The position numbers were made by a program, and so were the translations under genes. 32,000 bases of DNA from Pontiella desulfatans (lineage in GTDB: Bacteria > Verrucomicrobiota > Kiritimatiellia > Kiritimatiellales > Pontiellaceae). The first letter of the stretch is position 1. Each line of letters starts with the position of its first letter. Below the pieces are notes generated by a model. The model was not told the DNA's origin and ran no database searches. It saw nothing but the letters and a program-made list of their open reading frames with translations. Below are positions 4,516-19,735 of the stretch, one piece after another. The stretch is from positions 632,330-664,329 of the forward strand of contig NZ_CAAHFG010000004.1 in assembly GCF_900890425.1 (NCBI RefSeq), in the 5' to 3' direction.

Positions 4516-4516
4516 A

Positions 4517-4711
4517 TTAATTTCCAGTCGTTGCAGGTTGGAAGAGGCCCGCTTGTTGCAGGAAGTAGATCACGAGCAGGGCCATCACGGCGATCACGGC
4601 CAGTTTCATCGTCGCCTTGATGGCTTTGTTGAACAGCACGGCAATGCTGATGGCGATCGCTACGATTAAAATGATCCAGGTCATGGGGCTGAGGGTCTGC
4701 AAGGCTTCCAC
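4517..4711 (-). CDS. Small two-helix membrane protein (hypothetical)
   Basis: 64-aa ORF with two hydrophobic helices (WIILIVAIAISIAVLF and LAVIAVMALLVIYFL). It is tightly abutted to the downstream ORF. It is short, so uncertain; an internal Met (MTWII) is an alternative start. Confidence 0.45.
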   Translation of the reverse strand: MEALQTLSPMTWIILIVAIAISIAVLFNKAIKATMKLAVIAVMALLVIYFLQQAGLFQPATTGN

Positions 4712-4724
4712 TTCATTCTCCGGG

Positions 4725-5834: not shown

Positions 5835-6232
5835 CAGAACAACTCACTGATCTTGAGCACCATTTGGCCGATGCCCTGGTGGAAATAGAGGCCGATCTGC
5901 GCAACCAACGACCAGGCCACGGCAAACTGCGCCAGCGCATACCCCGCAAGCGTGAACTGGCCGATGCCGACCAGCCCAACCCCGAACTGTGCCAGGGTAA
6001 CCACGCCCACGCCGAACTGGCCAATGGCAATGATGCCGTAGGCCGGCACCGGTTTGCGGTCGCGGTATTTGAAGGAAACGTGAACCAGCGGCACGCCCAT
6101 CACGGTGGCGGCGGACTTATACTCGAAGCCGTAGCCATCCCATTCATCCTTGGCGGGGAAGGGCGCCCCGCACTGCGGGCACGCCCGGGCCTGTTCCGAA
6201 ATTTCATGGCGACACGCTCTGCACGGTTTCAT
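5834..6232 (-). CDS. Zinc-ribbon domain membrane protein (hypothetical)
   Basis: 132-aa ORF with an N-terminal CxxC...CxxC ribbon (CRACRHEISEQARACPQCG). This is followed by Gly-rich hydrophobic repeats (IGQFGVGVVTLAQFGVGLVGIGQF). Confidence 0.55.
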   Translation of the reverse strand: MKPCRACRHEISEQARACPQCGAPFPAKDEWDGYGFEYKSAATVMGVPLVHVSFKYRDRKPVPAYGIIAIGQFGVGVVTLAQFGVGLVGIGQFTLAGYALAQFAVAWSLVAQIGLYFHQGIGQMVLKISELF

Positions 6233-6273: not shown

Positions 6274-7635
6274 CTATCTTTCCGGCCGCGAGCGGGCGAC
6301 GAGCTTAATGAAGATCGGCGCGCCTTCGAGGCCGAACGCCTCGCGGAACTGGTTCTGCAAATATTTCAGCCAGTTGGAGCGCGAATAGGTTGGATCGTTC
6401 ACGAACACCTTGAAATAGATCGGGTTGGTGCCGGACTGCGTGGCATAGAACACCTTCAGGCGCTTGCCCTTCGCGATGGGCGGCGGATATTTCTCGACCG
6501 CCTGCTGGACGACGCGGTTCAACACGCCGGTGGTGATTTCGACGCGCGTCTGGGCGGCGACATAGTCGATCGCTTCCACGGAACGCTTGATGTTGTAGCC
6601 GTCCTTGGCCGAAACGAACAACACGGGGGCGAAGCCCATGAAGGGCAGCGCCTCGCGCAGGGCCGGCAAATATTTGGTCTGCGTAACGTCCTCATCGGCG
6701 TCTTTCGCCAGGTCCCACTTGTTGATGAGCAGGATGCACCCCTTCTGGGCTTCGATAATCTTGGCGGCCACCTTCTTGTCGCGGGTGGTCGGCCCGGTTT
6801 CGCCGTCCAGCACCATCACCACCACGTCGGCGCGTTCGATCGCCTTGTCGGTGCGCAGGTTGCTGAACCAATCCACCGCGCTTTTGCCGCGGGTGTCCTT
6901 CTGGACGCCGGCGGTGTCGATCAGCTGGTAGTGGCGGGCGGTTTCGCCTTTGCCGATGGTGAAGGGGATTTCGATGCTGTCGCGGGTGGTGCCCGGAATA
7001 TCCGAGACAATCACGCGTTCGTCCTTGAGCAGGCGGTTGATGTAGGACGATTTCCCGGCGTTCGGCCGGCCCACCACGGCCACCCGGAGCGGTTCTTCCT
7101 CCGTTGGGTTTTCCTCTTTCGGCAGCTCGGGGATCAGCGCCTCCATCAGGGTGACGATGCCGCGGTTGTGGACGGCGGAAACGGGGAAGACGGGGAAGCC
7201 GAGCTGGTCGAAGTCGTACGCGCCCTCTTCCCGGTCTTCATTGTCGGCCTTGTTGGCCGCGAGGAATACGGTGCGCCCGCTCTGATGCAGGATGCGCGCC
7301 ACCTCTTCATCCAGCGGGGCGAGCCCGGCCGAGATGTCGACCACGAAAATAATGAACGAAGCATCCGCAATGGCCACTTCCGCCTGCGTTTCGGTTCCTT
7401 CAACGATTTGGTCGGGGGAAACCTGCTTGCCGAAATGGCCCAGTCCGCCGGTATCGATCAGCTCGAACCGCTCGCCTTCCCAGTTGGCCTCGCACACAAT
7501 GCGGTCGCGCGTTACGCCTTCCTCTTCGTGCACGATCGACACGCGCCGCCCCACCAGCCGGTTGAACAGCGCCGACTTCCCTACGTTCGGGCGACCCACG
7601 ATCGCCACAACCCTTTTGCTCTTCGTCTCTTCCAT
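6274..7635 (-). CDS. der: Ribosome-biogenesis GTPase Der (EngA)
   Basis: Two tandem GTPase domains. P-loops are GRPNVGKSALFNRL and GRPNAGKSSYINRLL, G3 motifs DTGG and DTAG, G4 motifs NKAD and NKWD, with a KH-like C-terminus. The ORF-track start at 7725 adds a 30-aa non-homologous leader. I prefer ATG 7635..7633 (MEETKSKRVVAIVGRPNVGKS). Confidence 0.9.
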   Translation of the reverse strand: MEETKSKRVVAIVGRPNVGKSALFNRLVGRRVSIVHEEEGVTRDRIVCEANWEGERFELIDTGGLGHFGKQVSPDQIVEGTETQAEVAIADASFIIFVVDISAGLAPLDEEVARILHQSGRTVFLAANKADNEDREEGAYDFDQLGFPVFPVSAVHNRGIVTLMEALIPELPKEENPTEEEPLRVAVVGRPNAGKSSYINRLLKDERVIVSDIPGTTRDSIEIPFTIGKGETARHYQLIDTAGVQKDTRGKSAVDWFSNLRTDKAIERADVVVMVLDGETGPTTRDKKVAAKIIEAQKGCILLINKWDLAKDADEDVTQTKYLPALREALPFMGFAPVLFVSAKDGYNIKRSVEAIDYVAAQTRVEITTGVLNRVVQQAVEKYPPPIAKGKRLKVFYATQSGTNPIYFKVFVNDPTYSRSNWLKYLQNQFREAFGLEGAPIFIKLVARSRPER

Positions 7636-7839
7636 AGTGCGGAGGGTGATACACGAATCCCCCAACCGGCACAACGGCAAAGGGTGGAAAGATTGACGGC
7701 AACCGCCGCCTCCCTGGCCGATCAACTATTTGGTATTGCGGCTCGACGGAAGTCTTTAATGTCAATATGATCTTTGGCAGATACTTAATCAGGCCCTGCT
7801 TTTGGGGATGCCGGGCCAACGGAAACCCAGGGGTGGAAC

Positions 7840-8091
7840 GTGGTTGACGAAGCTTTGATCGAACACCTGGCGGAAGCGGTGCATGTCCGCTGGATGGAAG
7901 GGCGTCTGGCCGAGGGCTGGACGCATGGGCCGGTGCGCGATGAAGCCGCCAAACAGCATCCGTGCCTCGTTCCCTACAACGACTTGCCCGAAAGCGAACG
8001 GGAATACGACCGCGCCACCGTCCGCGCCACGCTGGATGGGCTGAAGAATCTGGGGTATCGAATCCAGGGGGCAGGGGATGGAAAAGAATAG
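7840..8091 (+). CDS. Stand-alone RyR (ryanodine-receptor repeat) domain protein
   Basis: 83-aa ORF with a GTG start preceded by AGGGGTGGA. The text LAEAVHVRWMEGRLAEGWTHGPVRDEAAKQHPCLVPYNDLPESEREYDRATVRATLDGLKNLGYRI matches the bacterial RyR-domain pattern (H.rW...GW..G......HP.LVPY..L.e.ek.yDR). It is clearly paralogous to the C-terminus of the 14091..15965 product. It overlaps the next ORF start by 14 nt. Confidence 0.75.
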   Translation: MVDEALIEHLAEAVHVRWMEGRLAEGWTHGPVRDEAAKQHPCLVPYNDLPESEREYDRATVRATLDGLKNLGYRIQGAGDGKE

Positions 8092-11000
8092 ACGACCGGT
8101 TTTTAGGATATTCGTGAGTTCGCCCTCCGACGTAGTCGAGGAGCGGCGGGTGGTCGATACCGTGGTTGCCGAGCTGTGCGAACGGTATGCTTCTTGGGTG
8201 CATATCGAACGGGTGCTCTGGGAAAAGGAACTACTGTGCGCCAATCGGGGTGGTTTTCAGGATCAGATTGTTCCCATTGAGCAAACACACCTCGTGGTTT
8301 CCATCCTTTGGTCGAAGATTGGTTATCCGCTGGGAGAAGGAAAGACGGAGGACATTAAACCGGTGTTTCATCCGCCCACCTGGCAAGGGCGGAATCCGAC
8401 TGGAACCGAGCTGGAGATCGTAAGGGCGTTGCAGGCTTATGACGATACCCCCTCCTCCGAGCGCTTCCCCGACCTGCTCGTCTACCGCAAAACCGGGCGC
8501 GAACCTTTGGTTCCCATTGAGGAGGCGGAGGATGCCAGCCGGCAGCTCCGCGAAACGCGCACCTTTTTCGACTGGCTAACCAAAAACGAAAGCGATGGCA
8601 GCTTCTCTGCCGCCTTTCACCAATTCGAGTCGCTCAACCAGTTCGAGGAACTGCTCAAGGAGCACCTGCCGCGGTGGATCGAGGATCGGCTCGGGGTCGG
8701 GCGCGAACAGAGCAAGCTGCACCTCACCTGGCCGCATGGTTCGCCCTTCCGCGCGCTCGAACCGTTCGACGTCCACCACCATCCCGTCTTCTTCGGGCGT
8801 CAAAAGGAAACATTCGGCATCTTGGAACGCTTCCGGATGCTGGACGAACAGGGCATGGCGTTTCTGATGGTACTGGGCATGAGCGGTAGCGGAAAGTCCT
8901 CGCTCATCCGGGCGGGGGTTATAGCACGTCTCGATGCCCGTCGGGATGAGCGCTGGTGCTATGCCATCATGAATCCCGGCTTGGAAGCGAATCTGGCCGG
9001 GGCATTGATTGAGGCGTTGCACAATGAAACCGCCTTGCCGGAATTGAGTGGTAATGAAACCCTTGCCAACATCGCCAAGGATAGTCCGCAAAGTCTCGGC
9101 CTGATGGTCGAGGATTGCTTGGAAGCGAAAGAGGCGAATCTATTCCTCTTCATTGACCAGTTCGAGGAATTGTTCACGGGAACCAGGAATGCCGCAGAAC
9201 GCAAGGCGTTTGCCCGAATCCTCTTGGAACTCGCACGCAGTAAGCGGGTTTGGGTGTGCGCCACCATGCGTAGCGATTTCTACCATCGACTCGAAGCGTT
9301 GCCCGACCTGCTCGATGCCTCGGGTAGCGATGGCCTTTTCCATCTGCAGTCTCCCTCGCTCTCCGCGATCGACCTGATCGTCCGCCGTCCCGCCCTGGCC
9401 GCCGGGCTCCGCTATGAAGAGATTGACGGCGTCGGGCTCGACCAAGCCATGATCGACGACGCCAACGGACTGGGCGACTGCCTCCCGTTACTGGAATTTA
9501 CCCTGCATCGCCTTTATGAAGTGGGTTACGAGGATGGAATACTCGCATACGACGAATACGAATCCATCGGCAAGATCGGCGGCGCGGTTGACCAGCACGC
9601 CCGATCCGTCGTCGCCTCGATGGACAAGGAGGAGCAAAGGGCGCTGCCGCGAATTTTCGATGAGCTGGTTGGGCTGGACAGCGACGGCAAGGCTGTCCGC
9701 CAATATCCCCGGCGCAAATTTTTCGGGCAGGATACTCCTGCCGACCGCATGATCAAGCGACTGGTTAAAGAACGATTGCTGATTGCCGGGGAGGACGCCG
9801 AACACGAGCCCACGGTCGCCCTTGCCCATGATCTGTTGCTGGTGCACTGGTCGGAGGTGGGGCTTCACATCGAACAGAACCGGGAACGCATGCAGCAGCG
9901 CCAATGGCTCCGCGAATCCGCCCGGCAGTGGGATGCCGAACACCGCAACCGCGCCCTGCTGCTCGAAACCGACCGGCTGGTCGATCGCGCGGAAATCCAA
10001 TGGGTGTATGCCGGTGGTGCATTAGGCGACCTTGAGCGCGCATTCGTCGAGGCATCGGTCAAGCGGCGGGGCCGCAAGAGTGTGCTTGGCTGGGTCGCTA
10101 TCGGTACGATGGATATTATTTTGCTGGTATGTATGGGAATTCTTGTTGCAGGGATCGTTTTTCCATCGTTCCGCGATGTAGTGGTGGAAAACGATTCGAT
10201 GGAGATATGGGTGGATTTCTATGCAACCCCCTTGGCCATTCTTCTGGCCTGGATGCCTGCACTCCTGTTCATGGGTTGGCTAACGTGGCGCAAGGTCATG
10301 CCCGTACCTTCGGTCAAATGTGTAACGACAGACCTGAGGGTTGCATTGGTTGGACTTGGCTTGGATCTGGCGGGATATGCCACATGTTTTACCGATGGAA
10401 CGGATTTGTCCGATAGCCTGGCGTTCGGGATTCCCGTCACCCTGCTGTGGGGGCTCTGGATTGGAAATAGCCTTCGAACCAAGCGGCAGATTGCCGGATG
10501 GAGCAGGAAGCGTAATCCAATCCGGCGCCTGAACGTGTTGCGCGTATATTTCAAGCCGTTGTTACGGGGGATGGTCTATGCCGCTGCAACGGTGTTTATT
10601 ATTGCCATCATTGCCGTCGCCATGGAGGAGACCTCCACCGAGCAGGCGCAGTGGAATCTCGACAAGGTGATGGCCGAATCCTGGAATTACAATGGCGGTG
10701 CCATGCTCTCGCTCGTCGAGGACGGGGCGGGGGTTGACACCCGCAATGCGTACGGGAGCTCACCACTGCATTTGGCCGCCTTATACAACGACACGGCCAC
10801 GGCGCAATCGTTGCTGGATTTGCATGGGGCGGACATTGATGCCGTCGACAAAGCAGGCAACACTCCGCTGTTTCTTGCTCTCCAAGGAAGTTCGACCGCA
10901 CACACGAACGATGTGGTTTGGGCGTTGCTTTCCCACGGGGCGGATTTGGAGCATCGGAACTATATCGGGGGAACCCCGCTGGGATTTGCCACCGAACTTG

Positions 11001-12133
11001 GAAAGGTCGATCTGACCGAGCTCCTCCTGAGGCAGGGGGCGGAAACAGAGGTGCGCACCCATCTCGGCGCAACTCCGGCCTATTCGGCGGCCATGAACGG
11101 CCATCTACATGTGCTGTCGCTGTTGTGGGGCTGTACACAGGAAGAGGTGGCCCGATCGCTTTCAGCGTCGGCGCAAAAACAGGACGGCCTGGATTTCGAC
11201 CGGCTTTGCTGCGCGGCCGTGTGGCACCGGTGGAAAGGGGCATTGGAGGAATCGCGCAGGCTCTATGCCGCCGCGCTTGCCTTGGCGGAAACCGAAGGCA
11301 ACGGCCTTGAGGCGTTCGTGCTATCGGAATACGCACAAACCTATTTTGTGGTTGATCCCTCTGCGGCTGCCGGCATCGACCTTGTTGAGCGGGCATGCGA
11401 AGAGGAATCCTCCGGTTTGATGAGGGAGAACCTCGTGGGCAACCTGCTTTGGCACTATGTTCAGGGCGGGCGTTTTGACGATGCGAACAAGCGGGCGCAG
11501 GAAATGATGCCGACCCTGGACGAGTCGGATCCGTCTCCCTTGTGGATGAATTGTGCGCACGCCCTCTTGTTTACCGGCGACAAGGAGGGGGCACGCGAAA
11601 TCTATGCCCGGCATTGGAACGAGACGTTTGTCGATGGCCGGAACTGGGGAAATGAAGCCGTTTCCGACTGGTCGCAGTTGGAATGGCTGGAGGTGGACAC
11701 CGATATCCTTCACTCGGCCAAAACCGAGTGGGAGGTGCATACTCCCGACCTCTCCTTCATGAGAAAACCGGAAGGGTGCGACACCGGAGAGCTGAAAACC
11801 TTGCGGGATCGCATGGTCGGAAGGTGGCGATGTGAAGAGCTGTTCGAAGGCCGGGTTTTCATTCTTGAGTGGACGATTCTTCCCGATGGCCGATGCAGCT
11901 ACAACTTTTTCCGTGCCGCCGATAGATCACTTCACCAAACCTCCTATTCCACTTGGAAGATAGGCATCCACGACGGCATGAATATTTGGGGCGAACAAGG
12001 CGGTATCGACGGTGCTGTCACGTTGGCAAGCATACAGTTCGGGGCGGATGGCGACGAACTTGTTCTCACCCGCGCGGAAACCACATCCCAGTGGAACAAT
12101 TTCCAGCAAAGGCTCTACAGAAGGATCAAATAA
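8078..12133 (+). CDS. DUF4062-like (TIR-fold) - nSTAND-type P-loop NTPase - 4-5 TM block - ankyrin repeats - unknown C-terminal domains
   Basis: 1351-aa ORF. The N-terminus RIFVSSPSDVVEERRVV...GTELEIVRAL...LLVYRK (~8099..8498) looks like DUF4062/TIR-fold. The text ALEPFDVHHHPVFFGRQKE plus Walker A GMSGSGKSS (8876..8902) and Walker B LFLFIDQFEELF (from 9140) fits a STAND NTPase. PLLEFTLHRLY and ALAHDLLLVHW fit its winged-helix part. Hydrophobic helices span 10082..10624. Ankyrin text (GSSPLHLAALYNDTATAQSLLDLHGADIDAVDKAGNTPLFLA, GGTPLGFATELGKVDLTELLLRQGA) spans ~10690..11130. About 330 aa of unassigned sequence follow. Confidence 0.85.
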   Translation: MEKNRRPVFRIFVSSPSDVVEERRVVDTVVAELCERYASWVHIERVLWEKELLCANRGGFQDQIVPIEQTHLVVSILWSKIGYPLGEGKTEDIKPVFHPPTWQGRNPTGTELEIVRALQAYDDTPSSERFPDLLVYRKTGREPLVPIEEAEDASRQLRETRTFFDWLTKNESDGSFSAAFHQFESLNQFEELLKEHLPRWIEDRLGVGREQSKLHLTWPHGSPFRALEPFDVHHHPVFFGRQKETFGILERFRMLDEQGMAFLMVLGMSGSGKSSLIRAGVIARLDARRDERWCYAIMNPGLEANLAGALIEALHNETALPELSGNETLANIAKDSPQSLGLMVEDCLEAKEANLFLFIDQFEELFTGTRNAAERKAFARILLELARSKRVWVCATMRSDFYHRLEALPDLLDASGSDGLFHLQSPSLSAIDLIVRRPALAAGLRYEEIDGVGLDQAMIDDANGLGDCLPLLEFTLHRLYEVGYEDGILAYDEYESIGKIGGAVDQHARSVVASMDKEEQRALPRIFDELVGLDSDGKAVRQYPRRKFFGQDTPADRMIKRLVKERLLIAGEDAEHEPTVALAHDLLLVHWSEVGLHIEQNRERMQQRQWLRESARQWDAEHRNRALLLETDRLVDRAEIQWVYAGGALGDLERAFVEASVKRRGRKSVLGWVAIGTMDIILLVCMGILVAGIVFPSFRDVVVENDSMEIWVDFYATPLAILLAWMPALLFMGWLTWRKVMPVPSVKCVTTDLRVALVGLGLDLAGYATCFTDGTDLSDSLAFGIPVTLLWGLWIGNSLRTKRQIAGWSRKRNPIRRLNVLRVYFKPLLRGMVYAAATVFIIAIIAVAMEETSTEQAQWNLDKVMAESWNYNGGAMLSLVEDGAGVDTRNAYGSSPLHLAALYNDTATAQSLLDLHGADIDAVDKAGNTPLFLALQGSSTAHTNDVVWALLSHGADLEHRNYIGGTPLGFATELGKVDLTELLLRQGAETEVRTHLGATPAYSAAMNGHLHVLSLLWGCTQEEVARSLSASAQKQDGLDFDRLCCAAVWHRWKGALEESRRLYAAALALAETEGNGLEAFVLSEYAQTYFVVDPSAAAGIDLVERACEEESSGLMRENLVGNLLWHYVQGGRFDDANKRAQEMMPTLDESDPSPLWMNCAHALLFTGDKEGAREIYARHWNETFVDGRNWGNEAVSDWSQLEWLEVDTDILHSAKTEWEVHTPDLSFMRKPEGCDTGELKTLRDRMVGRWRCEELFEGRVFILEWTILPDGRCSYNFFRAADRSLHQTSYSTWKIGIHDGMNIWGEQGGIDGAVTLASIQFGADGDELVLTRAETTSQWNNFQQRLYRRIK

Positions 12134-12234
12134 TGAAGAAAAAAAGCACATTCAGGTGGTGGTCGCAGATGGTTTACTTGGGCGAGGAGTTCTGCTCCAG
12201 GCAATTGTTCCGTTTTATCCCGGAGTTTGTTTAA
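12133..12234 (+). pseudogene. Relic copy of the 5' end of the downstream channel-like gene (33 codons)
   Basis: Its ATG overlaps the STAND stop (TAATG). It encodes MKKKSTFRWWSQMVYLG..., compared with MKKNAFGCWWSQMVYRA... at 14091. A 20-nt perfect core, tggtggtcgcagatggttta, occurs at 12157..12176 and 14115..14134. The core sits inside ~100 nt of diverged similarity with compensating indels, and the relic ends at an early TAA. Confidence 0.5.
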
Positions 12235-12285
12235 TGGCTCTGATGGGAATCATGTAGTGGAACCCATTTAGCGGAAAGATAGAAG

Positions 12286-14079
12286 ATGAGTGAATCCAAA
12301 CCGATGAGACTTTTCATTTCCTATTCATCGAAATCCGGCGAGGCCGCCCGCTCGTTCGCGGACAAGCTGCGAACCCTGGGCTACGACACCTGGCTCGCGC
12401 CGGAGGAGATCCATGGCGGGCAGGATTTTGCCGAGCAGATTATGGAAGGCTTGGATCAATGCCACGGATTCGTGCTGTTGCTGACGGCCGAGGCCAACGA
12501 GTCGCCCCATGTGAAGAGCGAGCTGAACCAGGCCTTTGGCCGCAAGATGCCGATCCTGCCCGTCCTGTTGGAAGAGTTTGAGCTATCGCGGAGCTATGTC
12601 TACTATCTTTCCCACGCCCAATGGGTGGATGCCTCCAACGGCGCGGACGGTTGCTGGGATGAGGTAACCACGGTGCTGGATGCCTGGCGCGCGGGGCGGA
12701 CGCCGACAAGAACCGTCCAGCCCCCCTTGCCCTTCAAGCGGGTTAGGGCGTGGCCGAAGGTGGCCGCAGGCGTGGCGGTGGCGGGGCTGCTGGCTCTGGG
12801 GGTCTGGAAACTCGCCCCGAACGACGCTCCGAGTCCGGAAGACGAAAACCAGGTACGGCGCGTGGCCTCGCACATGCTGTTCATGCTGGTTTGCTGGGAT
12901 CAGCAGTTCGGATCCTTCGAGCGCTATACGGAATATCTTGAAGGTAAGGTCATATCCGGCTCGGACTATCCGATGGATATGCAGATCAAGGAGCTGGAAG
13001 GTCAGGCGGCACATGTTGCGGGCGAAATGCAAAATACCGGTGCGAAAATACACCCGTTCCCGGAAGGCCTGCTCGCGTGGATTCAGGGATCGCCTTTGAA
13101 CGCGGCCGACGCCGATGCGTTCGTGCCCTTTGCTTCCACGATGACCGAGGAGTTGGTGAACAATGTCGGCTTCCTGCGGAATTGCGTCGATCCGCGGTTC
13201 GTGATGAGTCCGGCCAACAAGCGCGAGCTGCTTGTCCAATACCGGAAGTGGAACCGCGAAAGCGCCGCGATGGCGTGGTATGGCGCAGCGGAATTCCTCG
13301 CGCCGCTGAACCAGGATACGGAAGGGTTCCGGAAGGCCTTCCGTGAGCCGCTCTCCACCTGCGCCTATCTGGCCAGCCTCAACCTGCTTTGGTTGGACGA
13401 CCAGGCCGAATGCGAACGCCTGGCGAAAAGCGCCGAGGAGCGGATGAACCGCATCATGAACGAAATGGCTGCGCTGGTGGGCGAAGAGCAGGCCAACCTC
13501 AGCCGCCAGGAAGATGCGATGCTTCCGCTTCTTCAAAAGGCCGAAGAGGTGGAGCAAATGGAAAAGCAGTTGGCGGAGCTGGAGGCCATGCTTGCCGAAC
13601 AGGAACCCGCCATCCGCGCCGACTGCACGCTCCTGCCCGACGACGATCCGGGCATCATGTGGGGCAAGATTATCCGGCTGATGGCCTGCGGCATGCATGC
13701 CGATGCCTCCCTGCAAATGGATCGGTTCCTGGAATTCAACCCGGACTCCACCTCTGCCCCCCGCGTGGTCAAGGCGGTCAAGGCCTATGCAACGGAAGCC
13801 GCAAAAACCGGCATGCGGCACGGGGCCGTGGTGTGGGGCACCGAGAACGATGTTGTGCACTCCGTGCTTCGTCCGGGCGACATTGTGGTTGAGCTGAACG
13901 GTGAGCAGGTTCTTGGCGGGGCGTCTTATGTCGCAATCAAACAAAAGAGCGGTGCGGAGAACAGCGACTTTCGATACCTGCGGTTGGATTCCAACGGGCT
14001 TCTAATGGAGCATGTGGATAAAGGAAATTCCAACGAGCCCCGCATCAGCATTACGGATATCGTGGAACAGATGGATTGA
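12286..14079 (+). CDS. Membrane-anchored TIR-domain protein with large C-terminal (predicted extracytoplasmic) region and PDZ-like end
   Basis: 597-aa ORF. The TIR_2-type text is RLFISYSSKSGEAARSFADKLRTLGYDTWLAPEEIHGGQDFAEQIMEGLDQCHGFVLLLTAEANESPHVKSELNQAF (~12304..12661), including a candidate catalytic Glu in SPHVKSEL. A single TM helix WPKVAAGVAVAGLLALGVWKL (12751..12813) has basic residues before it and acidic residues after. A coiled coil (EEVEQMEKQLAELEAMLAEQE) follows. PDZ-like text LRPGDIVVELNGEQVLG lies at ~13819..14017. Confidence 0.85.
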   Translation: MSESKPMRLFISYSSKSGEAARSFADKLRTLGYDTWLAPEEIHGGQDFAEQIMEGLDQCHGFVLLLTAEANESPHVKSELNQAFGRKMPILPVLLEEFELSRSYVYYLSHAQWVDASNGADGCWDEVTTVLDAWRAGRTPTRTVQPPLPFKRVRAWPKVAAGVAVAGLLALGVWKLAPNDAPSPEDENQVRRVASHMLFMLVCWDQQFGSFERYTEYLEGKVISGSDYPMDMQIKELEGQAAHVAGEMQNTGAKIHPFPEGLLAWIQGSPLNAADADAFVPFASTMTEELVNNVGFLRNCVDPRFVMSPANKRELLVQYRKWNRESAAMAWYGAAEFLAPLNQDTEGFRKAFREPLSTCAYLASLNLLWLDDQAECERLAKSAEERMNRIMNEMAALVGEEQANLSRQEDAMLPLLQKAEEVEQMEKQLAELEAMLAEQEPAIRADCTLLPDDDPGIMWGKIIRLMACGMHADASLQMDRFLEFNPDSTSAPRVVKAVKAYATEAAKTGMRHGAVVWGTENDVVHSVLRPGDIVVELNGEQVLGGASYVAIKQKSGAENSDFRYLRLDSNGLLMEHVDKGNSNEPRISITDIVEQMD

Positions 14080-14090
14080 AAGGTGGAACA

Positions 14091-15965
14091 ATGAAAAAAA
14101 ATGCATTCGGATGTTGGTGGTCGCAGATGGTTTATCGGGCGTGGAGTTCGACGCCGCGGCAAATTATCGTTTTGATCGGGGCGTTTGCACTGATTGTGGC
14201 CTTCGGGGCCGTGTTGCTCTGCCTGCCGTACTTCGAGTTCGGCGCGAAGGATCTCGGCGACAATCCGTGGTGGGTCTCGTTCATGCATGCAACGTGCCCG
14301 GACTATCTCGGCGAAACGACCGGCTGGAGCCGGGTGCTCGACTTCTTCGTGACCTACGGCGGATGGTTCGTGCTGCAAGGGGTGTTCGTGTCGATCCTCG
14401 TCAACGCGCTCGACCGCCGGGGCCAACGCACCTTGGAGGGCGATGCCCGCTGCCGGTTCAAGGACGGGCACGGCGTGGTGCTGGGCTGGGGCGCCATGGG
14501 CGTCTCCGTGGTTGAAAAGCTCGCCAAGCCCGGCCGCAAGGTCATCATCCTCTCGCAGGAAAACGCCGAGGAGGTGCGCGAACAACTGCGCACCGAGTTC
14601 GATTGCCCCGAATGTGCGGTCGATCCGCGCAAGGTCTTCGTCTTCCGCGGCTCGCTCGATTCCAACACCGATCTCAAGGCCTTGAATGTTGCCGGGGCCG
14701 ACGAGGTGGTGGTGTTGGGCGACCGCAACGTGCGCGGCAACGATAGCCGCAACCTGCAGGCCGCCACCCGCATCGCCGAGCTGCGCGATGCGCGGAAGAT
14801 GGAAGGGAAAGTCACCATCCATATCCATATCGACGATCTGCGTTCCTACGACCTGATCCAGGACATCGACATTCCCTCGGGCAGGCAGGGGGTGGCCAAC
14901 TTCCACCCCTTCAACTTTTGCGAGGACTGGGCGCGGCGCATCTGGTGCGCCATTCCGGGTGGCTCAACGGCCCATGTGTATCCGCCCTTGGCCTATGCTC
15001 CCGAAGTTGCCCGGAAGGAATCCTCCGCCTATGTGCATCTCTTCGTGCTCGGTTTCGGCCAGATGGGCCAGGCCATCGCCGTGCAGGCCGCACGGATTGC
15101 CCACTATGCCTCCGGCAGGAAAACCAAAATCACCGTCGTTGATTCCAAGCTCGAAGCCCGCGAGGTCTCCTTCCGCAGCCATTGTGCCATCGATGCCATG
15201 CCGGACATCGAATTCACCTTCCTCAAGGCCTATGCCGAATCGGCCACGGTACGCGACAAGCTGGCCGAAGCCGCCGACGATCCGAACCAGATCCTCAGCG
15301 TCGCCGTCTGCTTCTCCGACCCCGACGCGTCCATGAGTACCGCGCTTTCGTTGCCGGCTCCCGTCATTACCGGCGACAATCCCGTCTACGTCCGGCAGGA
15401 AACCCGCTCCGGCCTCTCCTCGCTTGCGCAGAAAATCAAGGACCAGAAGCGGTGGAAGGATATCCGTTTCTTCGGCACCCTCGACGAATGCTACGGGTTG
15501 GTTCCCGGGCAAGACAAGATTGCCGAACAGATCCACAACAGCTACATCGAGCAGGCCAAGGCCGAAGGCTGGTACGATCCCGAAAAGCCCAGCTTCCATC
15601 CCTGGAAATCGCTCGCCGAGCACTACCGCTGGTCGAACCGCTACCAGTCCGACGCCTTCCTCGAGCGCATCCGCGCCTTCGGCTACTCGCTCCAGCCGGT
15701 CTCCGCTTCCGAAACCATCTCCCGCTTCCCCCTGGAGCAACTCGAGCTCCTGGCCGAAACCGAGCACGACCGCTGGTGGGCCGAGCGCCTTCTCGCCGGC
15801 TGGACTCCCGGCGACCGCAACGACGACCTCCGCCAGCACCCCAACCTCGTCCCCTACGAAGGGCTCGACGAACCCACCAAGGAATACGACCGCGACGCCA
15901 TCCGCAACATGCCCTCCCTCATCCAGGACAACTTCGGGATGGGGTTGGTTCGCGGAGGTTCGTAA
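14091..15965 (+). CDS. 2-TM pore-like (Trk/Ktr MPM-like) module fused to two KTN/RCK-type Rossmann domains and two RyR-like domains
   Basis: The ORF track starts at TTG 14076. I prefer ATG 14091, which lies 4 nt after AGGTGG (14081..14086). M1 is IIVLIGAFALIVAFGAVLLCLP (14163..14225). An acidic loop NPWWVSFMHATCPDYLGETTGW follows, then M2 FFVTYGGWFVLQGVFVSILVNAL (14343..14411). GxGxxG motifs are VVLGWGAMG (~14475) and FVLGFGQMG...ITVVDSK (~15039). A degenerate RyR-like stretch is IAEQIHNSYIEQAKAEGW (~15516..15700). A clear RyR domain LAETEHDRWWAERLLAGWTPGDRNDDLRQHPNLVPYEGLDEPTKEYDRDAIRN lies at ~15740..15930. Confidence 0.8.
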   Translation: MKKNAFGCWWSQMVYRAWSSTPRQIIVLIGAFALIVAFGAVLLCLPYFEFGAKDLGDNPWWVSFMHATCPDYLGETTGWSRVLDFFVTYGGWFVLQGVFVSILVNALDRRGQRTLEGDARCRFKDGHGVVLGWGAMGVSVVEKLAKPGRKVIILSQENAEEVREQLRTEFDCPECAVDPRKVFVFRGSLDSNTDLKALNVAGADEVVVLGDRNVRGNDSRNLQAATRIAELRDARKMEGKVTIHIHIDDLRSYDLIQDIDIPSGRQGVANFHPFNFCEDWARRIWCAIPGGSTAHVYPPLAYAPEVARKESSAYVHLFVLGFGQMGQAIAVQAARIAHYASGRKTKITVVDSKLEAREVSFRSHCAIDAMPDIEFTFLKAYAESATVRDKLAEAADDPNQILSVAVCFSDPDASMSTALSLPAPVITGDNPVYVRQETRSGLSSLAQKIKDQKRWKDIRFFGTLDECYGLVPGQDKIAEQIHNSYIEQAKAEGWYDPEKPSFHPWKSLAEHYRWSNRYQSDAFLERIRAFGYSLQPVSASETISRFPLEQLELLAETEHDRWWAERLLAGWTPGDRNDDLRQHPNLVPYEGLDEPTKEYDRDAIRNMPSLIQDNFGMGLVRGGS

Positions 15966-16044
15966 GCGCGAACCGAGCCACGAAGCCCCTTTTAAGGGTT
16001 AAAGGTCTCCGGTGCCCCGGCTCCGGATTTTGCCGGATTGCCGC

Positions 16045-16073
16045 TTGACGGCGCGGGGCGGGAAGCGTACTTT
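16045..16073 (+). promoter_or_regulatory. Candidate sigma70-type promoter of nusA-infB
   Basis: TTGACG (16045..16050), a 17-nt spacer, then TACTTT (16068..16073), about 110 nt upstream of the nusA ATG. Motif match only. Confidence 0.35.
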
Positions 16074-16104
16074 GCTCGACTTGTTGATAGTTTGGCTCTG
16101 GATG

Positions 16105-16130
16105 AGAGTGGCCCCTGGCCGCTCTTTTGT
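16105..16130 (+). terminator. Terminator-like hairpin: nusA leader attenuator or terminator of the upstream operon
   Basis: agagtggcc-cct-ggccgctct forms a 9-bp stem with one G-T pair (16105..16125). It is followed by tttgttctct. Confidence 0.4.
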
Positions 16131-16182
16131 TCTCTATGGGCCTGTTATTTGATTTATTGAAGGTTGAGCAAGGAGGTGGCGA

Positions 16183-17373
16183 ATGAATGCTGCGGAACTG
16201 AAAGCCGTTGTGGAATACATGGAAAGCGAACGGGGCGTGGAGCGCGAAACGATTATTCGTGCCATCGAATCCGCCCTGCAGAGTGTTGCCGAGAAAAACG
16301 GGGACGAAGTGGACGAGGATTTGCGCATCGAGATCGATCGCCGCACCTTCGAGCGCAAGGCCTACCGGAAACTGTCGGATGGCTCCGAAATCGAAACCAC
16401 TCCTCCGCGCATGGGCCGCATCGCCGCGCAGACCGCCAAACAGGTGATCATGCAGAAGATCCGCAACGCCGAGAAGGAAATCATTTTCGACGAATACAAG
16501 GATCGCCTCGGCGAAATCACCACCGGAACCGTGACGCGCTTCGACCGCTCGGACGTGGTGATCGAGCTGGAGCACGGCGAAGCCATCATGCCTTCCAAGG
16601 AACGCGTTCCGACCGAGGAATATGAGATTGGCGAGCGTGTCCGGGCGCTCATCCTTAATGTCCGCGAGCGCGAGCGCGGCCCCGAGATCGTGCTTTCGCG
16701 CAACCACCCCGATTTTGTCCGCCGCCTTTTCGAACTGGAGGTCTCGGAGATTTCCGATGGCACGATGGACATCAAGGGCATTGCCCGCGAGGCCGGCTAC
16801 CGCAGCAAGGTGGCGGTGATTTCGCACGATGAGCGCGTGGATCCCGTTGGCGCCTGTGTTGGCATGCGCGGCATGCGCGTGAAGAACATTGTGCGCGAAC
16901 TCTCCGGCGAAAAGATCGATATCGTCCGCTGGAGCGACGATATCCACACCCTGATAACCAACGCCCTCGCACCGGCCCGGCTGAAGCATGTCGAAGCCGA
17001 TGCGGATACGCAGACCGTCAAGGTTACGGTCGAGCCCGACCAGCTTTCGCTGGCGATCGGCAAGCGCGGCCAGAACGCGCGGCTGACCTCCAAGCTGACC
17101 GGCTGGCGCGTGGACATCCAGAAGGATGAAGAGAGCATGGACTTCGAGGAGCGCGTTGCCGTTGCGGTAACCAAGCTCGCTGCCATCGAAGGCATCGGCG
17201 ACGAATACGCCGACAAGCTGGTATTCTCCGGCTTCCTGACGCTGGAAGGTATCCTGGCCGCCGAGATGGGCGACCTCTCTTCCATCGAAGGCATTTCCCC
17301 CGAGCAGGCCAGGGCCCTCTGGTATGCGGCAGAGGCGGAATACATTAAAGAACACGGTGAGATTACGGAATGA
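16183..17373 (+). CDS. nusA: Transcription termination/antitermination factor NusA
   Basis: 396-aa ORF with RBS AGGAGG 6 nt upstream. The N-terminal text LKAVVEYMESERGVERETIIRAIESAL, an S1 region and KH text (RSKVAVISHDERVDPVGACVGMRGMRVKNIVRELSGEKIDIVRWS, LAIGKRGQNARLTSKLTGWRVDI) are classic NusA. Confidence 0.92.
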   Translation: MNAAELKAVVEYMESERGVERETIIRAIESALQSVAEKNGDEVDEDLRIEIDRRTFERKAYRKLSDGSEIETTPPRMGRIAAQTAKQVIMQKIRNAEKEIIFDEYKDRLGEITTGTVTRFDRSDVVIELEHGEAIMPSKERVPTEEYEIGERVRALILNVRERERGPEIVLSRNHPDFVRRLFELEVSEISDGTMDIKGIAREAGYRSKVAVISHDERVDPVGACVGMRGMRVKNIVRELSGEKIDIVRWSDDIHTLITNALAPARLKHVEADADTQTVKVTVEPDQLSLAIGKRGQNARLTSKLTGWRVDIQKDEESMDFEERVAVAVTKLAAIEGIGDEYADKLVFSGFLTLEGILAAEMGDLSSIEGISPEQARALWYAAEAEYIKEHGEITE

Positions 17374-19517
17374 TGACAGTACAAGAGACAGCTAAAGATG
17401 TCGGCGTATCCGCCGAGGAATTGATCGAGATTCTGGGGGATATCGATATCGTCGTTGATGGCCCGGAATCCGAACTGACCAAGGATCAGATCACCCAGGT
17501 TTGCGACGAGCTGGGCTACGGCTCGATCGAGGACGCGCGCGAGGATAATGTCTCGGCCGAGGAAGAAGAAGAGCCCGAAGCGGCTCCTGCCGAAGAGGTG
17601 AAGGAAGAGGCCGCCCCGGTGGCCGCCGCCGAGGAAGCCCCGGTTGAAGAGGCCGCCGCCGAAGAGGTGGTTGCCAAGGAAGCTCCGCCCGCCGCCTCCG
17701 ACGAACCGGCGAAGGACCCGACCCTGATCGAGTTGAAAAAGCCGAAGGTGATCGTTAAGGACTTTGCCGAAATGATGGGTATGAAGCCCAACATGGTGAT
17801 TGCCGAGTTGATGCGGATGAACGTGTTCGCCTCCATCAACGCCGAGATCGATTTGAAGATCGCCAAGCAGATTGGCGAGAAGCACGGCTTCACCGTACGC
17901 AAGGAAGAGAAGAAAAAGGCCGCGCCGCAACAGCCGAAGACCAGCAAGAAAGTCCAGGCCAAGAAGCTGGCTGAAGCTCCGGACACGCCCGACGCCCTGC
18001 TGCCGCGGCCGCCGGTCGTCACCTTCATGGGGCACGTCGACCACGGCAAGACCTCCCTGCTCGACAAGGTGCGCAACACCCGCGTCACCGCCGGCGAGTC
18101 CGGCGGCATCACGCAGCACATCGGTGCCTATACGGTCGAACTCAACGACCACAAGATTACGTTCCTCGACACCCCCGGCCACGCCGCCTTCACGGCCATG
18201 CGTGCCCGCGGTGCAAACCTCACCGATATCGCCGTGCTCGTTGTTGCGGCGGACGACGGTGTGATGCCGCAGACGATCGAAGCCATCAAGCACGCGAAGG
18301 CGGCCGGCGTTTGCACCATCATTGCAATGAACAAGATGGACTTGCGCGCCGCCAACCCCGACCGCTTGAAGCAGCAACTTCAGGAAAACGAAATCATGGT
18401 CGAGGACTGGGGCGGCGACATCGGCTGCATTCCGGTGAGTGCCGAAACCGGCGAAGGAATCGATTCGCTTCTCGAACGCATCCTGCTCGAGTCCGAAATG
18501 CTCGAGCTCAAGGCCAACCCCAACAAGCCGGCAACCGGTTTCGTGGTGGAGGCCCAGATGGAGCCGGGCATGGGCCCGACCGCCAGCGTGCTCGTCAAGA
18601 GCGGTACGCTTAAGGTGGGCGACAACGTGATCTGCGGCAATTATTGGGGCCGCATCAAGGCGCTCATCAGCGACCAAGGCAAGAAGATCCGCACGGCCGG
18701 ACCGTCCACCGCCGTGAAGATTCTCGGGCTCACCAACGTGCCGGGTGCCGGCGACGAATTCCAGGTGCTGGCCTCCGACAAGGAAGCCAAGGCGCTTTCC
18801 GAGGAGCTGCAGGCCGAAGAACGCGCCGCGCAGCTGGGTGGCGGAGCCGCCCCGAAGAAGATGTCGCTCGACGACCTGTTCGGAGCCGGCGCAGGGGACG
18901 AGAAGAAGGAACTCAAGGTGATCATCAAGGCCGACGTGCAAGGTTCGGTCGAAGCCATTGCGCATTCGCTTGGCGGCATCAAGAGCGACAAGGTGGAGAT
19001 CAACATCATCACCAACGATGTCGGCAACATTACCGTCAACGACGTCATGCTGGCGAGTGCATCGGATGCCATCATTCTCGGTTTCCACACCGGCAACGAA
19101 AACGGAACCAACGCCGCCGCCAAGCGCGAAGGGGTTGAGATCCGCTTGTACAGCATCATCTATGAATTGATCGAAGATGTTGAGAGCGCCATGAAGGGTT
19201 TGCTGGAACCGGAACTGCGCGAACAGGTGATCGGCGAAGCGGAAGTCCGCGAAGTATTCGAGCTCAGCAAGAAGAGCAAGATTGCCGGTTGCATGGTGAT
19301 GAGCGGTCGCATTACTTCGAAGGCGAGCATCCGAATCAAGCGCGGTCGCGACATTCTTTTCGAAGGCCTCATTGGTTCGCTCAAGCGTTTCCAAAACGAT
19401 GCCGCCGAAGTGCGCCAAGGGCAAGAGTGCGGCATACGTCCGGAGAACTTCACGAACTTCGAAGCAGGCGACACGATCCAGGCCTACATCGTCGAAAAGA
19501 TCACGCAGGAATTATAG
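17370..19517 (+). CDS. infB: Translation initiation factor IF-2
   Basis: 715-aa ORF whose ATG overlaps the nusA stop (ATGA). It has an acidic/Ala-rich linker, then GTPase text [29 protein letters not shown], and IF-2 C-terminal domains. Confidence 0.95.
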
Positions 19518-19530
19518 CGCGTACAACCAT

Positions 19531-19552
19531 GGCGATTTCGGAATCGCCTTTA
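19531..19552 (+). terminator. Rho-independent terminator-like hairpin after infB
   Basis: ggcgatt-tcgg-aatcgcc forms a perfect 7-bp stem (19531..19548), followed by ttta. Confidence 0.55.
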
Positions 19553-19586
19553 TTCATCGGGTCATCCCCGATGTCCGGCAAAAAAA

Positions 19587-19613
19587 GCCGTCCGCGATGC
19601 GGGCGGCTTTTTT
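19587..19613 (+). terminator. Rho-independent (possibly bidirectional) terminator
   Basis: gccgtccgc-gat-gcgggcggc forms a 9-bp stem with one G-T pair. An A7 run precedes it and T6 follows. Confidence 0.75.
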
Positions 19614-19706
19614 GTTGTGCACCGCACCGATATTTCATTGCTTGTGATCCCATAAATTCATTGATGCAACTTCATATGAGACATGCGTTTTTATAAAGCA
19701 AACGGG

Positions 19707-19735
19707 TTGCATAACATTCGCTTTGTGCTTATAAA
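19707..19735 (+). promoter_or_regulatory. Candidate sigma70-type promoter for the H1-like gene
   Basis: TTGCAT (19707..19712), a 17-nt spacer, then TATAAA (19730..19735), inside an unusually AT-rich 330-nt intergenic region. Motif match only. Confidence 0.4.

Follow-up and report, generated by a model that had tools for sequence, protein, structure and literature searches.

Gene organization of the locus

The window, a stretch of 32,000 nucleotides from Pontiella desulfatans, carries four co-directional, tightly coupled genes at positions 7840–15965 of the plus strand, on which all features described below are located unless stated otherwise. Read 5' to 3', the block comprises a stand-alone RyR gene (solo RyR), a STAND gene, a relic of a channel gene, a TIR gene and the channel gene itself. 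All ORFs and junctions of the preliminary description were confirmed: the RyR gene (7840–8091) overlaps the STAND gene (8078–12133) by 14 nt, TAATG at 12131–12135 combines the STAND stop with the next ATG, and the stop of the TIR gene (12286–14079) lies 11 nt ahead of the channel ATG at 14091. The der gene (6274–7725, minus strand) runs divergently from the block, and the 114-nt der/RyR intergenic region contains the only sigma-70-like match within 7600–16300, a candidate promoter by its consensus match (7743–7771). An intrinsic-terminator-like hairpin with a 10-bp stem and a T tract (16104–16136) closes the block ahead of nusA. Gene coupling and this single promoter/terminator pattern favour one operon.

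The block had been described as inserted between der and nusA. It does lie between both genes, but a mobile island was not supported: the GC content is close to that of the flanks, a tRNA scan around the block and a search for repeats at its borders yielded none, and the flanking genes that were scanned include no integrase-like ORF, as had been noted before. A mobile-element reading was rejected on the flank-like GC and the missing tRNA and edge repeats. The neighbours are housekeeping genes (der, nusA, infB, nrdR) and not a recognised defence island.

The solo RyR protein and the channel-like protein

The first gene has a GTG start with GGGGTGGAAC just upstream and encodes an 83-residue Repeat12-type RyR protein (Pfam RyR, 4.4e-22), bearing out the initial call of a stand-alone RyR domain. 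A PDB sequence search matched it to 6uhi and 3nrt as well as to animal RyR repeats. In an alignment with the phage RyR Tad, its residues H15/W18/R33/H40/D57 occupy the ligand-binding positions, corresponding one-to-one to H129/W132/K147/H154/D171 of gp68, and the His/Asp dyad known from the glycosidase RyDEP is retained. Homologues occur in 254 phage records. RyR/Repeat12 proteins from phages either bind 2'/3'cADPR, with affinities in the nanomolar range, or hydrolyse these isomers, and those tested block Thoeris signalling (PMC13232231; 10.64898/2026.06.04.730250, 2026 preprints); these two preprints now back the cADPR–RyR echo that was initially termed speculative.

The last gene (14091–15965) encodes a channel-like effector of 624 residues, for which Pfam, AF2 and Foldseek corroborated the proposed module composition of two TM helices, tandem RCK domains and two RyR repeats. 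TM1, a pore-helix-like segment and TM2 occupy residues 20–115 (14148–14435), the two TM segments being recognised in a hydrophobicity scan, and are followed, all within 14091–15965, by RCK/KTN 1 (residues 128–283, GWGAMG), RCK/KTN 2 (residues 314–467, GFGQMG) and the two RyR repeats (residues 474–621; Pfam RyR 7e-17). Both Rossmann domains thus exhibit GxGxxG, and the Asp after β2 is kept in the second. The Pfam scores for TrkA_N and the Slo-like RCK lie exactly at the gathering threshold. The AF2 model reached a pLDDT of 74 overall and a moderate 50–70 in the pore region, and Foldseek matched it to CASTOR/DMI1, Slo1, GsuK, MthK and TrkA and, for the RyR module, to Bt-hRyR_12, together indicating a tandem-RCK channel-like fold with an RyR Repeat12 module. 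The K+ filter T-V/I-G-Y/F-G was sought in the channel and not found, the corresponding segment being HATCPDYLGE (HATDPGYL in homologues). K+ selectivity is therefore not to be assumed, and given the missing canonical TVGYG filter and the pore pLDDT of 50–70 ion conduction is putative. The channel family is sparse and patchy: a word-based search of 5.8 billion proteins yielded 12 homologues.

Residue mapping revealed that RyR repeat 2 of the channel keeps H559/W562/R576/H583/D600, again matching the phage binding residues one-to-one, and that repeat 1 is degenerate with H482 as the sole pocket residue retained. Based on profile match and pocket residues (H-x-x-W, H, D), both the solo protein and the channel module belong to RyR Repeat12 (PF02026). 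As these residues are common to the whole PF02026 family, including animal RyRs binding ATP/ADP, they are no proof of cADPR specificity; a pocket-tetrad regular expression applied to all RyR matches (45 of 205) is uninformative, mixing degenerate first repeats and variable loop lengths. The solo RyR may serve as a signal buffer, either sponge or glycosidase, or act in trans as a subunit of the channel RyR module.

The STAND protein

The STAND protein comprises 1351 residues with an nSTAND1 NTPase, a TM block and ankyrin repeats. Its P-loop NTPase (residues 223–625; 8744–9952) matches Pfam PF20703 at 3.5e-86 and contains the Walker A motif GMSGSGKSS, placing it in the nSTAND1 clade, which is cited in PMC8195603 on NTP-dependent conflict systems (Kaur, Burroughs, Iyer, Aravind). 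A Kyte–Doolittle scan indicated at least three hydrophobic helices in the TM block (residues 667–853; 10076–10636), followed by ankyrin repeats (residues 875–1016; Ank_2/Ank_4/Ank, 1e-16 to 1e-14) and an uncharacterised C-terminal region (together 10700–12133). This ankyrin and C-terminal architecture recurs in the orthologues P0017–P0019 and presumably forms the sensor or interaction part of the protein.

The initial STAND call holds for these three modules. For the proposed DUF4062/TIR-fold amino-terminus, residues 1–221 (8078–8740) yielded no Pfam match, DUF4062 (PF13271) and TIR included, even at E ≤ 1, and a PDB sequence search was empty. AF2 predicted an α/β flavodoxin-like fold (pLDDT 85), for which Foldseek returned weak matches to flavodoxin, nucleoside 2-deoxyribosyltransferase and TIR-STING, while hhalign gave a weak match to four DUF4062 amino-termini (probability 33%, E 4.6e-4) and a probability of 8% against a TIR alignment. 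On Pfam grounds neither DUF4062 nor TIR could be assigned, and the TIR fold is unproven; the domain is best described as flavodoxin-like and weakly DUF4062-like. It contains a conserved SGTExE motif and is a candidate output or signal-generating domain. At E ≤ 1e-3 it matches 2041 cluster representatives, almost always at the amino-terminus of long proteins and, where annotated, of nSTAND1-TPR/WD40 proteins.

The TIR protein and a relic of the channel gene

The TIR protein (597 residues, 100% identical to PDESU_05750) shows the architecture first described, a TIR_2-type domain (residues 10–119; 12313–12642; Pfam TIR_2 1.2e-19), a single TM helix (residues 155–178; 12748–12819; hydrophobicity scan) and a large C-terminal part. 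The catalytic-type Glu79 (12520–12522) is kept, aligning with the conserved TIR-motif Glu in Cat1, and the protein matches PADLOC TIR models including ThsB; the locus hence contains the TIR domain with catalytic-type Glu expected of Thoeris. The carboxy-terminal region of 420 residues includes a coiled coil, is predicted from TM helix and charge bias to lie outside the membrane, and is nearly orphan, with three homologues in a word-based search and one Ignavibacteriaceae protein (L012, 14355–16304). The PDZ domain considered at its end was dropped, as the PDZ_6 match (Pfam, E 0.037) is a weak hint at best.

Directly behind the STAND gene lies a frame-broken sequence (12133–12234; MKKKSTFRWWSQMVY...) that aligns with 14091–14190 and is linked to the channel gene by an exact 20-nt repeat at 12157 and 14115. 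The preliminary description had noted this relic ORF and its TAATG junction with the STAND stop; its identity is now corrected to what, by alignment, is a decayed duplicate of the channel 5' end, marking the old STAND-to-channel junction. The relic shows that the TIR gene arrived later, between STAND and channel. The STAND-to-channel order is seen in two orthologous loci, L099 and L101.

Conservation of the core and linkage of RyR to TIR genes

A KTN(-RyR) channel gene lies near each of the three full-length STAND orthologues (50%, 45% and 42% identity). STAND, channel and solo RyR genes follow one another directly and in this order in L099/L100 and L101. All three are also found in L007, and a solo RyR gene thus occurs again at L007, L099 and L101. 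In L098, the channel lies ~7 kb from the STAND gene with TIR, DUF4062 and M48 genes between, and channel homologues from Hydrogenedentota and Cloacimonadota adjoin TIR and STAND genes. The best-conserved core is thus STAND–channel–solo RyR, and no TIR_2 gene was present in the available DNA of either L099 or L101. The core may hence be able to do without the TIR, which, considering also its secondary insertion, represents one input and need not be an indispensable source of the signal. As in nSTAND conflict systems, CHAT, TPR-S/MAP3K_TRAF_bd, TIR and DUF4062 occur in these neighbourhoods.

Among 84 RyR-domain loci (mostly KTN-RyR), the RyR-domain gene has a TIR gene no more than 10 kb away in 49 and no more than 300 nt away in 29, counts that are not phylogenetically independent because the loci were picked by an RyR-motif pattern and about ten stem from closely related Promicromonospora species. 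The TIR density decreases from 1.5 per 10 kb beside the RyR gene to 0.05–0.15 at 6–10 kb. All ten TIR calls sampled with Pfam matched TIR_2, nine above the gathering score and one weakly (E 3e-4). Of 64 RyR-linked TIRs, 63 retain the catalytic-type Glu, and 25 of 41 adjacent TIRs exhibit the layout of TIR, TM helix and large carboxy-terminus. In the same neighbourhoods, Pfam identified RyR domains fused carboxy-terminally to NUDIX-RelA/SpoT-SLOG, AAA and cyclase proteins. The co-occurrence in other genomes on which the preliminary description had made its reading depend is thus conserved, both as TIR–RyR linkage and as the core in the orthologues. These data support a strong and specific linkage between RyR-domain and TIR genes in many phyla, and that the genes of the locus form a conserved, apparently unnamed conflict-type module.

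Comparison with known systems

In agreement with the earlier view that this is not a named defence system, PADLOC, whose models cover neither the channel nor the solo RyR, names no system here. Besides the TIR models, its matches were all weak (PDC-M72A for the ankyrin part, PDC-S60 for the amino-terminus, Ankyrin, mad8, MzaA), and no PADLOC Avs/AVAST or bNACHT NTPase/effector model and no Thoeris effector model matched. The preprint by Yirmiya et al. (2025; 10.64898/2025.12.03.692087) describes Thoeris types I–XI, gives 29 putative effectors, reports TIR-signal-gated membrane-disrupting effectors as established for types II and V, and names as effector families ThsA SIR2-SLOG, Macro-TM, caspase-like, DUF2270, DUF6650, SLATT, CMP hydrolase, TIR-SLOG, Ion_trans_2 ThsK and HIT. 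The labels RyR, TrkA and RCK are absent from its text and from the table rows covered, and by this comparison and PADLOC the channel effector falls outside the named families.

The locus shares with Thoeris a catalytic-Glu TIR gene beside an effector with a putative nucleotide-sensing domain and, with types II, V and X, a membrane or ion-channel protein as output together with the proposed logic of abortive infection. It differs in its sensor, an RyR Repeat12 instead of the SLOG, Macro or DUF2270, DUF6650 and SLATT effector sensors in the covered part of the preprint, in its TM-anchored TIR of 597 residues, and in the additional STAND NTPase and solo RyR protein. Type X (TIR and ion channel, ThsK) was rejected as a match: the effector of the published locus (L091, 3358–3984) has 208 residues with Ion_trans_2 only and no RCK or RyR. 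The type X TIR falls into a ThsB/type II-like cluster, another clade than the TIR here, and the plasmid matches found with it are type II (TIR and Macro).

The phage proteins RyDEP (PMC13232231) and RyR Tad gp68 of Pectobacterium phage CB1 (10.64898/2026.06.04.730250) have the PF02026 fold and the aligned pocket residues in common with the solo RyR, and all are small and probably dimeric. Whereas the phage proteins are viral counter-defence removing a host signal, the RyR here is host-encoded within a TIR operon and is additionally fused to the channel as presumed receptor. GsuK, MthK, Slo1/BK and CASTOR/DMI1, the best Foldseek matches of the channel (E 1e-9 to 1e-6), likewise combine a 2-TM pore with two subsequent Rossmann RCK/KTN domains carrying GxGxxG; the channel here deviates by HATCPDYLGE in place of TVGYG, by its carboxy-terminal RyR Repeat12, by its conflict-system context and by TrkA_N and RCK Pfam scores at threshold only. 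Animal ryanodine receptors are also ion channels and contain Repeat12 domains ~50% identical to the solo RyR, but their pore, a 6-TM giant tetramer, is unrelated to the 2-TM RCK channel, leaving Repeat12 alone as homologous. With nSTAND conflict systems and Avs/bNACHT, the locus shares a STAND NTPase that combines repeat sensor domains with an effector-type domain at its amino-terminus; in contrast to these, the STAND here is membrane-embedded and has a KTN-RyR channel and a solo RyR as close partners. Literature searches returned nothing joining RyR with conflict systems or Thoeris with TrkA, and a search for ryanodine receptor, TIR domain and TrkA retrieved one unrelated neurological review.

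A putative TIR-to-channel signalling operon

Since phage Repeat12 binds TIR-made cyclic ADP-ribose, the operon probably represents an undescribed immune signalling system. On sequence grounds, the best reading is a Thoeris-like variant in which a TIR-made, possibly STAND-made, nucleotide would gate a membrane channel via its RyR domain. The TIR protein, anchored by its TM helix, would probably use its large carboxy-terminal region to sense a cue from the envelope or from infection, with the membrane-embedded nSTAND1-ankyrin NTPase as a likely second sensor. By analogy with its family, the activated TIR (Glu79) would convert NAD+ into an ADPR-derived nucleotide, e.g. 2'cADPR, 3'cADPR or cADPR, and the flavodoxin-like domain of the STAND protein may generate a second signal or act by protein contact. 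The nucleotide would bind the putative pocket of the second RyR repeat, a module predicted to sit under the tandem-RCK gating ring and a 2-TM pore that, with its degenerate filter, is probably non-selective. Channel opening would dissipate the membrane potential, leading to growth arrest or abortive infection. The solo RyR would most likely serve to buffer stray signal or to degrade it, or else dock on the channel RyR module, a docking that would be required in loci where the channel has a single RyR repeat. The proposal of a TIR signal acting on the channel, already part of the preliminary description, is favoured by the catalytic Glu, the RyR pocket and the conserved TIR–RyR linkage, but is weakened by the two core loci lacking TIR_2. 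We give the whole reading, one operon for membrane-located, Thoeris-like conflict or immune signalling, against which the housekeeping surroundings also speak, slightly better than even odds (roughly 55%).

The foremost alternative, which we consider unlikely, is metabolite sensing: the TIR would be a plain NADase effector, and the RCK and RyR domains would gate the channel by reading NAD+ loss, a rise in linear ADPR or the ATP/ADP ratio. RCK/KTN domains of GsuK and TrkA, both Foldseek matches of the channel, bind NAD/ADP/ATP, and the GxGxxG motifs with the β2 Asp of the second Rossmann domain fit such a role. Furthermore, RyDEP retains linear ADPR after cleavage (PMC13232231), and animal Repeat12 binds ATP/ADP (cited in 10.64898/2026.06.04.730250). 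The phage RyR proteins tested, however, bind cyclic ADPR isomers with nanomolar Kd and block Thoeris signalling, an in-operon solo RyR buffer fits a dedicated signal better than bulk metabolites, and most TIR partners look receptor-type (TIR-TM-sensor), as expected of signal producers.

Next in rank, and likewise improbable, is activation by protein contact, in which the STAND protein, once it senses its trigger, would oligomerise and switch on the channel within the membrane by direct contact via TM block, ankyrin repeats or amino-terminal domain, the RyR domains being regulatory or assembly elements and the TIR an independent, later-acquired NADase unconnected to the channel. The TIR-less core of L099 and L101, the relic indicating later TIR insertion, the membrane-embedded STAND protein and the lack of a demonstrable enzymatic family for its amino-terminal domain all agree with it, yet it leaves unexplained the adjacency-peaked TIR–RyR linkage in dozens of loci lacking this STAND, the RyR fusions to unrelated outputs and the intact ligand pocket of both RyR proteins. 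That there is no system at all, the KTN-RyR protein being a housekeeping nucleotide-regulated cation channel beside unrelated STAND and TIR neighbours, would suit the core-gene surroundings, the flank-like GC and a PADLOC set without channel or solo RyR models, but is highly improbable and already disfavoured by the overlapping or abutting genes, the linkage conserved in other phyla, the sparse and patchy family and the TIR density peaking beside the RyR gene.

Wider implications

In animals, a link between cADPR, a product of ADP-ribosyl cyclases and TIR enzymes, and ryanodine receptors has long been proposed and is disputed. Returning to the TIR-to-channel reading, we put forward only tentatively that the operon belongs to a widespread unnamed axis of bacteria and some archaea, in which TM receptor-like TIRs and/or STANDs would produce a cADPR-type nucleotide acting on a Repeat12-gated RCK channel with solo RyRs as buffers, and from which the phage RyR anti-Thoeris proteins and animal Repeat12 would originate. 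The operon is then a possible prokaryotic forerunner of cADPR-to-ryanodine-receptor signalling. If true, it would offer a simple bacterial model in which to examine Repeat12-mediated channel gating by cADPR-family nucleotides, and a small, tractable prokaryotic channel for the decades-old disputed idea of their direct action on this domain of ryanodine receptors. RyR-Repeat12-gated RCK channels would join TIR-based bacterial immunity as a new effector/sensor class, and the sponges and glycosidases of the RyR type described from phages in 2026 would gain a cellular context. In-operon buffering by a host solo RyR would introduce a regulatory principle new to Thoeris-like systems, comparable to the ring nucleases of type III CRISPR. 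The partner TIRs, mostly TM-anchored with large, variable carboxy-termini, are reminiscent of Toll-like receptors, an analogy that suggests envelope-side sensing.

Organization of the gene block

The block comprises four long ORFs, all co-directional on the plus strand at 7840–15965, namely the solo RyR gene (7840–8091; 83 aa), the STAND gene (8078–12133; 1351 aa), the TIR gene (12286–14079; 597 aa) and the channel gene (14091–15965; 624 aa counted from the ATG). Direct reading of all three junctions bore out the ORFs and junctions of the preliminary description, with a 14-nt overlap between the solo RyR and STAND genes, a TAATG common to the STAND stop and a short ORF (12133–12234), and 11 nt separating the TIR stop from the channel ATG. 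One promoter-like site (7743–7771) lies upstream of the block and the strongest terminator-like hairpin (16104–16126) follows its last gene. The Shine–Dalgarno-like string GGTGGAAC occurs both before the solo RyR GTG (7830–7839) and before the channel ATG (14081–14089), and a GTGGAAC (12257–12263) precedes the TIR ATG by 31 nt.

Core genes flank the block as previously described, except that the housekeeping gene der (6274–7725) is located on the minus strand and is thus divergent from it; the housekeeping genes nusA, infB, nrdR, trpC, pilM and a release factor gene are found downstream. The GC content of the block equals that of its flanks. No tRNA was detected around the block and no repeats at its edges, so that the earlier statement on the absence of a tRNA or att-like repeats there is upheld.

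The short ORF behind the STAND gene starts with MKKKSTFRWWSQMVY and the channel with MKKNAFGCWWSQMVY. About 100 nt of this relic can be aligned with the channel 5′ end, including an exact 20-mer, with an indel breaking the frame, indicating that the STAND gene was once directly followed by a channel gene. Judged from this alignment, the TIR gene arrived later than the original STAND–channel junction, probably along with the present channel copy. A 32-nt stretch of the solo RyR gene (8001–8032) is 81% identical to the second RyR repeat of the channel (15881–15912; EYDR... segment), as the two are homologous; recombination between both genes could occur here.

Domain architecture of the encoded proteins

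Pfam searches confirmed the main domain assignments, yielding RyR in the solo RyR protein (4e-22) and the channel (7e-17), nSTAND1 (3.5e-86) together with ankyrin repeats in the STAND protein and TIR_2 (1e-19) in the TIR protein, while TrkA_N and Slo-like RCK scored exactly at threshold in the channel. The STAND and TIR proteins are 100% identical to PDESU_05748 and PDESU_05750 of Pontiella desulfatans (Kiritimatiellota), respectively. Hydrophobicity scans revealed a TM block in the STAND protein (aa 667–853), a single TM helix in the TIR protein (aa 155–178) and two TM helices in the channel. The residues before the TIR-protein helix are basic and those after it acidic, which predicts a location outside the cytoplasm for its 420-aa C-terminal region. 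In an alignment with Cat1, a solved TIR, Glu79 of the TIR domain coincided with the conserved TIR-motif Glu.

The amino-terminal domain of the STAND protein (aa 1–221) is common, with 2041 cluster representatives in an exhaustive search, and resides nearly always at the N-termini of long proteins, the annotated ones being nSTAND1-TPR/WD40 NTPases. It gave no Pfam match even at E ≤ 1. AlphaFold2 modelled it as an alpha/beta flavodoxin-like fold (pLDDT 85), for which Foldseek returned weak matches to flavodoxin/ArsH, nucleoside 2-deoxyribosyltransferase and TIR-STING, and hhalign gave a probability of 33% against DUF4062 N-termini and 8% against TIRs. On this mixed evidence, the DUF4062/TIR-fold proposed in the preliminary description is unproven.

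In the AlphaFold2 model of the channel (pLDDT 74), TM1, a short segment resembling a pore helix and a long inner helix are followed by two Rossmann domains and two RyR repeats. The PDB entries that Foldseek ranked best for this model were tandem-RCK channels and gating rings (CASTOR/DMI1, Slo1, GsuK, MthK, TrkA), and the tail of the model matched a B. thetaiotaomicron/human RyR Repeat12 chimera. As the filter position reads HATCPDYLGE instead of TVGYG, we term the protein channel-like and do not claim K+ selectivity. The block is of high interest because bacterial TIR enzymes are here genetically tied to a channel bearing the ryanodine-receptor Repeat12 domain.

RyR ligand pocket and proposed signalling

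Two phage RyR proteins served as reference: RyDEP, with an H75/D117 catalytic dyad and W78 and H100 in its pocket (PMC13232231), and the RyR Tad gp68, which uses H129/W132, K147/H154 and K170/D171 and has a Kd of 43 nM (10.64898/2026.06.04.730250). Neither preprint mentions host-encoded RyR effectors. Aligning the gp68 sequence with the solo RyR and the channel repeats mapped gp68 H129, W132, K147, H154 and D171 onto H15, W18, R33, H40 and D57 of the solo RyR and onto H559, W562, R576, H583 and D600 of channel repeat 2; repeat 1 retains the first His (H482) alone of the aligned pocket residues.

We favour, with a probability of roughly 0.55, a membrane-located, Thoeris-like system whose RyR module gates the channel by an ADPR-derived nucleotide. 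Domain identities, pocket residues, gene coupling and conserved linkage are established by the analysis. In the scheme that we infer for its trigger, signal chemistry, ligand binding, ion conduction and phenotype, the TM-anchored TIR protein and the membrane-embedded STAND NTPase would act as sensors, the TIR domain, and possibly also the STAND amino-terminal domain, would make the nucleotide, and its binding to the channel RyR module would open, via the RCK ring, a probably non-selective pore. The solo RyR would either buffer or degrade stray signal or complete the channel RyR module. Sensing of bulk NAD, ADPR or ATP in place of a dedicated messenger appears unlikely to us.

Conserved linkage in other genomes

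Each of the three full-length STAND orthologues, which show 50%, 45% and 42% identity, has a channel gene linked to it. Loci L099/L100 and L101 share the order STAND, KTN channel, solo RyR, and the STAND gene of L098 has within 9 kb the genes of a KTN-RyR channel, a 233-aa TIR, a DUF4062 protein and an M48 peptidase. Channel homologues are rare (12 proteins in a word-based search). Their contexts fit this pattern: channel, SIR2-TIR and nSTAND1, in this order, in Hydrogenedentota; a channel flanked on both sides by DUF4062-STAND genes, close to AAA-RyR and TIR genes, in Cloacimonadota; and, again in this order, solo RyR, channel and a 1453-aa STAND in L007.

A survey of one genome per GTDB species gave 80 loci, or 84 non-duplicate loci with the earlier ones added, from many phyla and including one Methanoregula archaeon. 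TIR and STAND genes were searched by local profile HMMs and a sample was checked with Pfam, where TIR_2 was matched by 10 of 10 hits, one of them weakly. Among these 84 loci, which were picked by RyR motif and of which about ten come from closely related Promicromonospora species, 49 harbour a TIR gene at most 10 kb away, 29 a TIR gene at most 300 nt from the RyR gene, and 21 encode a STAND NTPase. Within these motif-chosen loci, TIR density falls from 1.5 per 10 kb at up to 1 kb from the RyR gene to 0.05–0.15 per 10 kb at 6–10 kb. Nearly all of these TIRs (63/64) possess a catalytic-type Glu. In adjacent TIRs, the TIR domain is frequently followed by a TM helix (25/41), and more than 250 residues lie past it (33/41), comprising WD40, TPR plus FGE-sulfatase or beta-propeller.

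In the stretches of DNA covered, L099 and L101 contain no TIR_2 gene. For such STAND–channel–RyR loci, either the ligand is made by another domain or the contigs missed the TIR gene. They speak for a further explanation, that the STAND protein activates the channel directly and the TIR is unrelated, which we regard as unlikely in view of the TIR density around RyR genes. That the genes of the block have no functional link at all is highly improbable, given their coupled junctions and conserved linkage.

In the loci of the closest STAND orthologues (L099 14255–16649 and L101 4623–6879), the KTN channel has only one weak RyR repeat and a solo RyR gene overlaps the channel stop codon, which suggests that the two-repeat Repeat12 module is divided between two proteins and assembles in trans. 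RyR also ends other neighbourhood proteins (NUDIX-RelA/SpoT-TPR-(SLOG)-RyR, AAA-RyR and adenylate/guanylate cyclase-RyR), hence behaving as a modular ligand sensor, and suggesting several RyR-controlled outputs besides channels. Multidomain RyR-ended proteins near TIR and STAND genes are encoded at L014 1734–4646, L016 5724–8705, L077 7844–10486, L002 17628–20570 and L042 7982–10489. A Peptidase_M48 (HtpX-like) gene, absent from the window, recurs beside the STAND or channel genes of three loci that are not related to each other (L004 11961–12857, L098 6651–7493, L099 8291–9169).

Comparison with Thoeris systems

A December 2025 preprint (10.64898/2025.12.03.692087) lists 29 putative Thoeris types, with types V–XI verified, and describes type X as TIR plus "ion channel" with a signal that is not known; its text and the portions of its tables that were covered carry no RyR, TrkA or RCK labels. 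A published type X locus (L091 3358–4495; TIR Ga0209021_100090619) has its effector directly upstream of the TIR, and its contig also contains a DNA methyltransferase-like gene. As this effector is a 208-aa Ion_trans_2 protein without RCK or RyR, with the pore motif FTLTYGGF, and the type X TIR falls in a type II-like cluster, identity of the present system with type X is ruled out. PADLOC run on the block products named no system, matching the earlier view of an unnamed gene combination, and other literature searches returned nothing relevant. We would best place the system within TIR-based signalling immunity, as a novel variant that lies outside every named type. Overall, the observation of the preliminary description stands with corrections and its interpretation is supported in part.

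Other features of the window

Upstream of der, 264–5888 contains several long plus-strand ORFs without Pfam match; at 4617–5888, the minus-strand ORF 4725–5834 (HEAT/DNA_alkylation-like) is the likelier gene. At 19000–20500 GC falls to 0.52 with strong AT skew, and the ORF 19817–20296, just before nrdR, shows a weak HC2 histone-H1-like (Lys/Ala-rich) match. An 813-aa FGE-sulfatase-domain protein is encoded at 22579–25020; in a Brocadia MAG (L023 782–3133), a TIR-TM protein encoded beside a KTN-RyR gene has this domain as its presumed sensor part, probably by coincidence.
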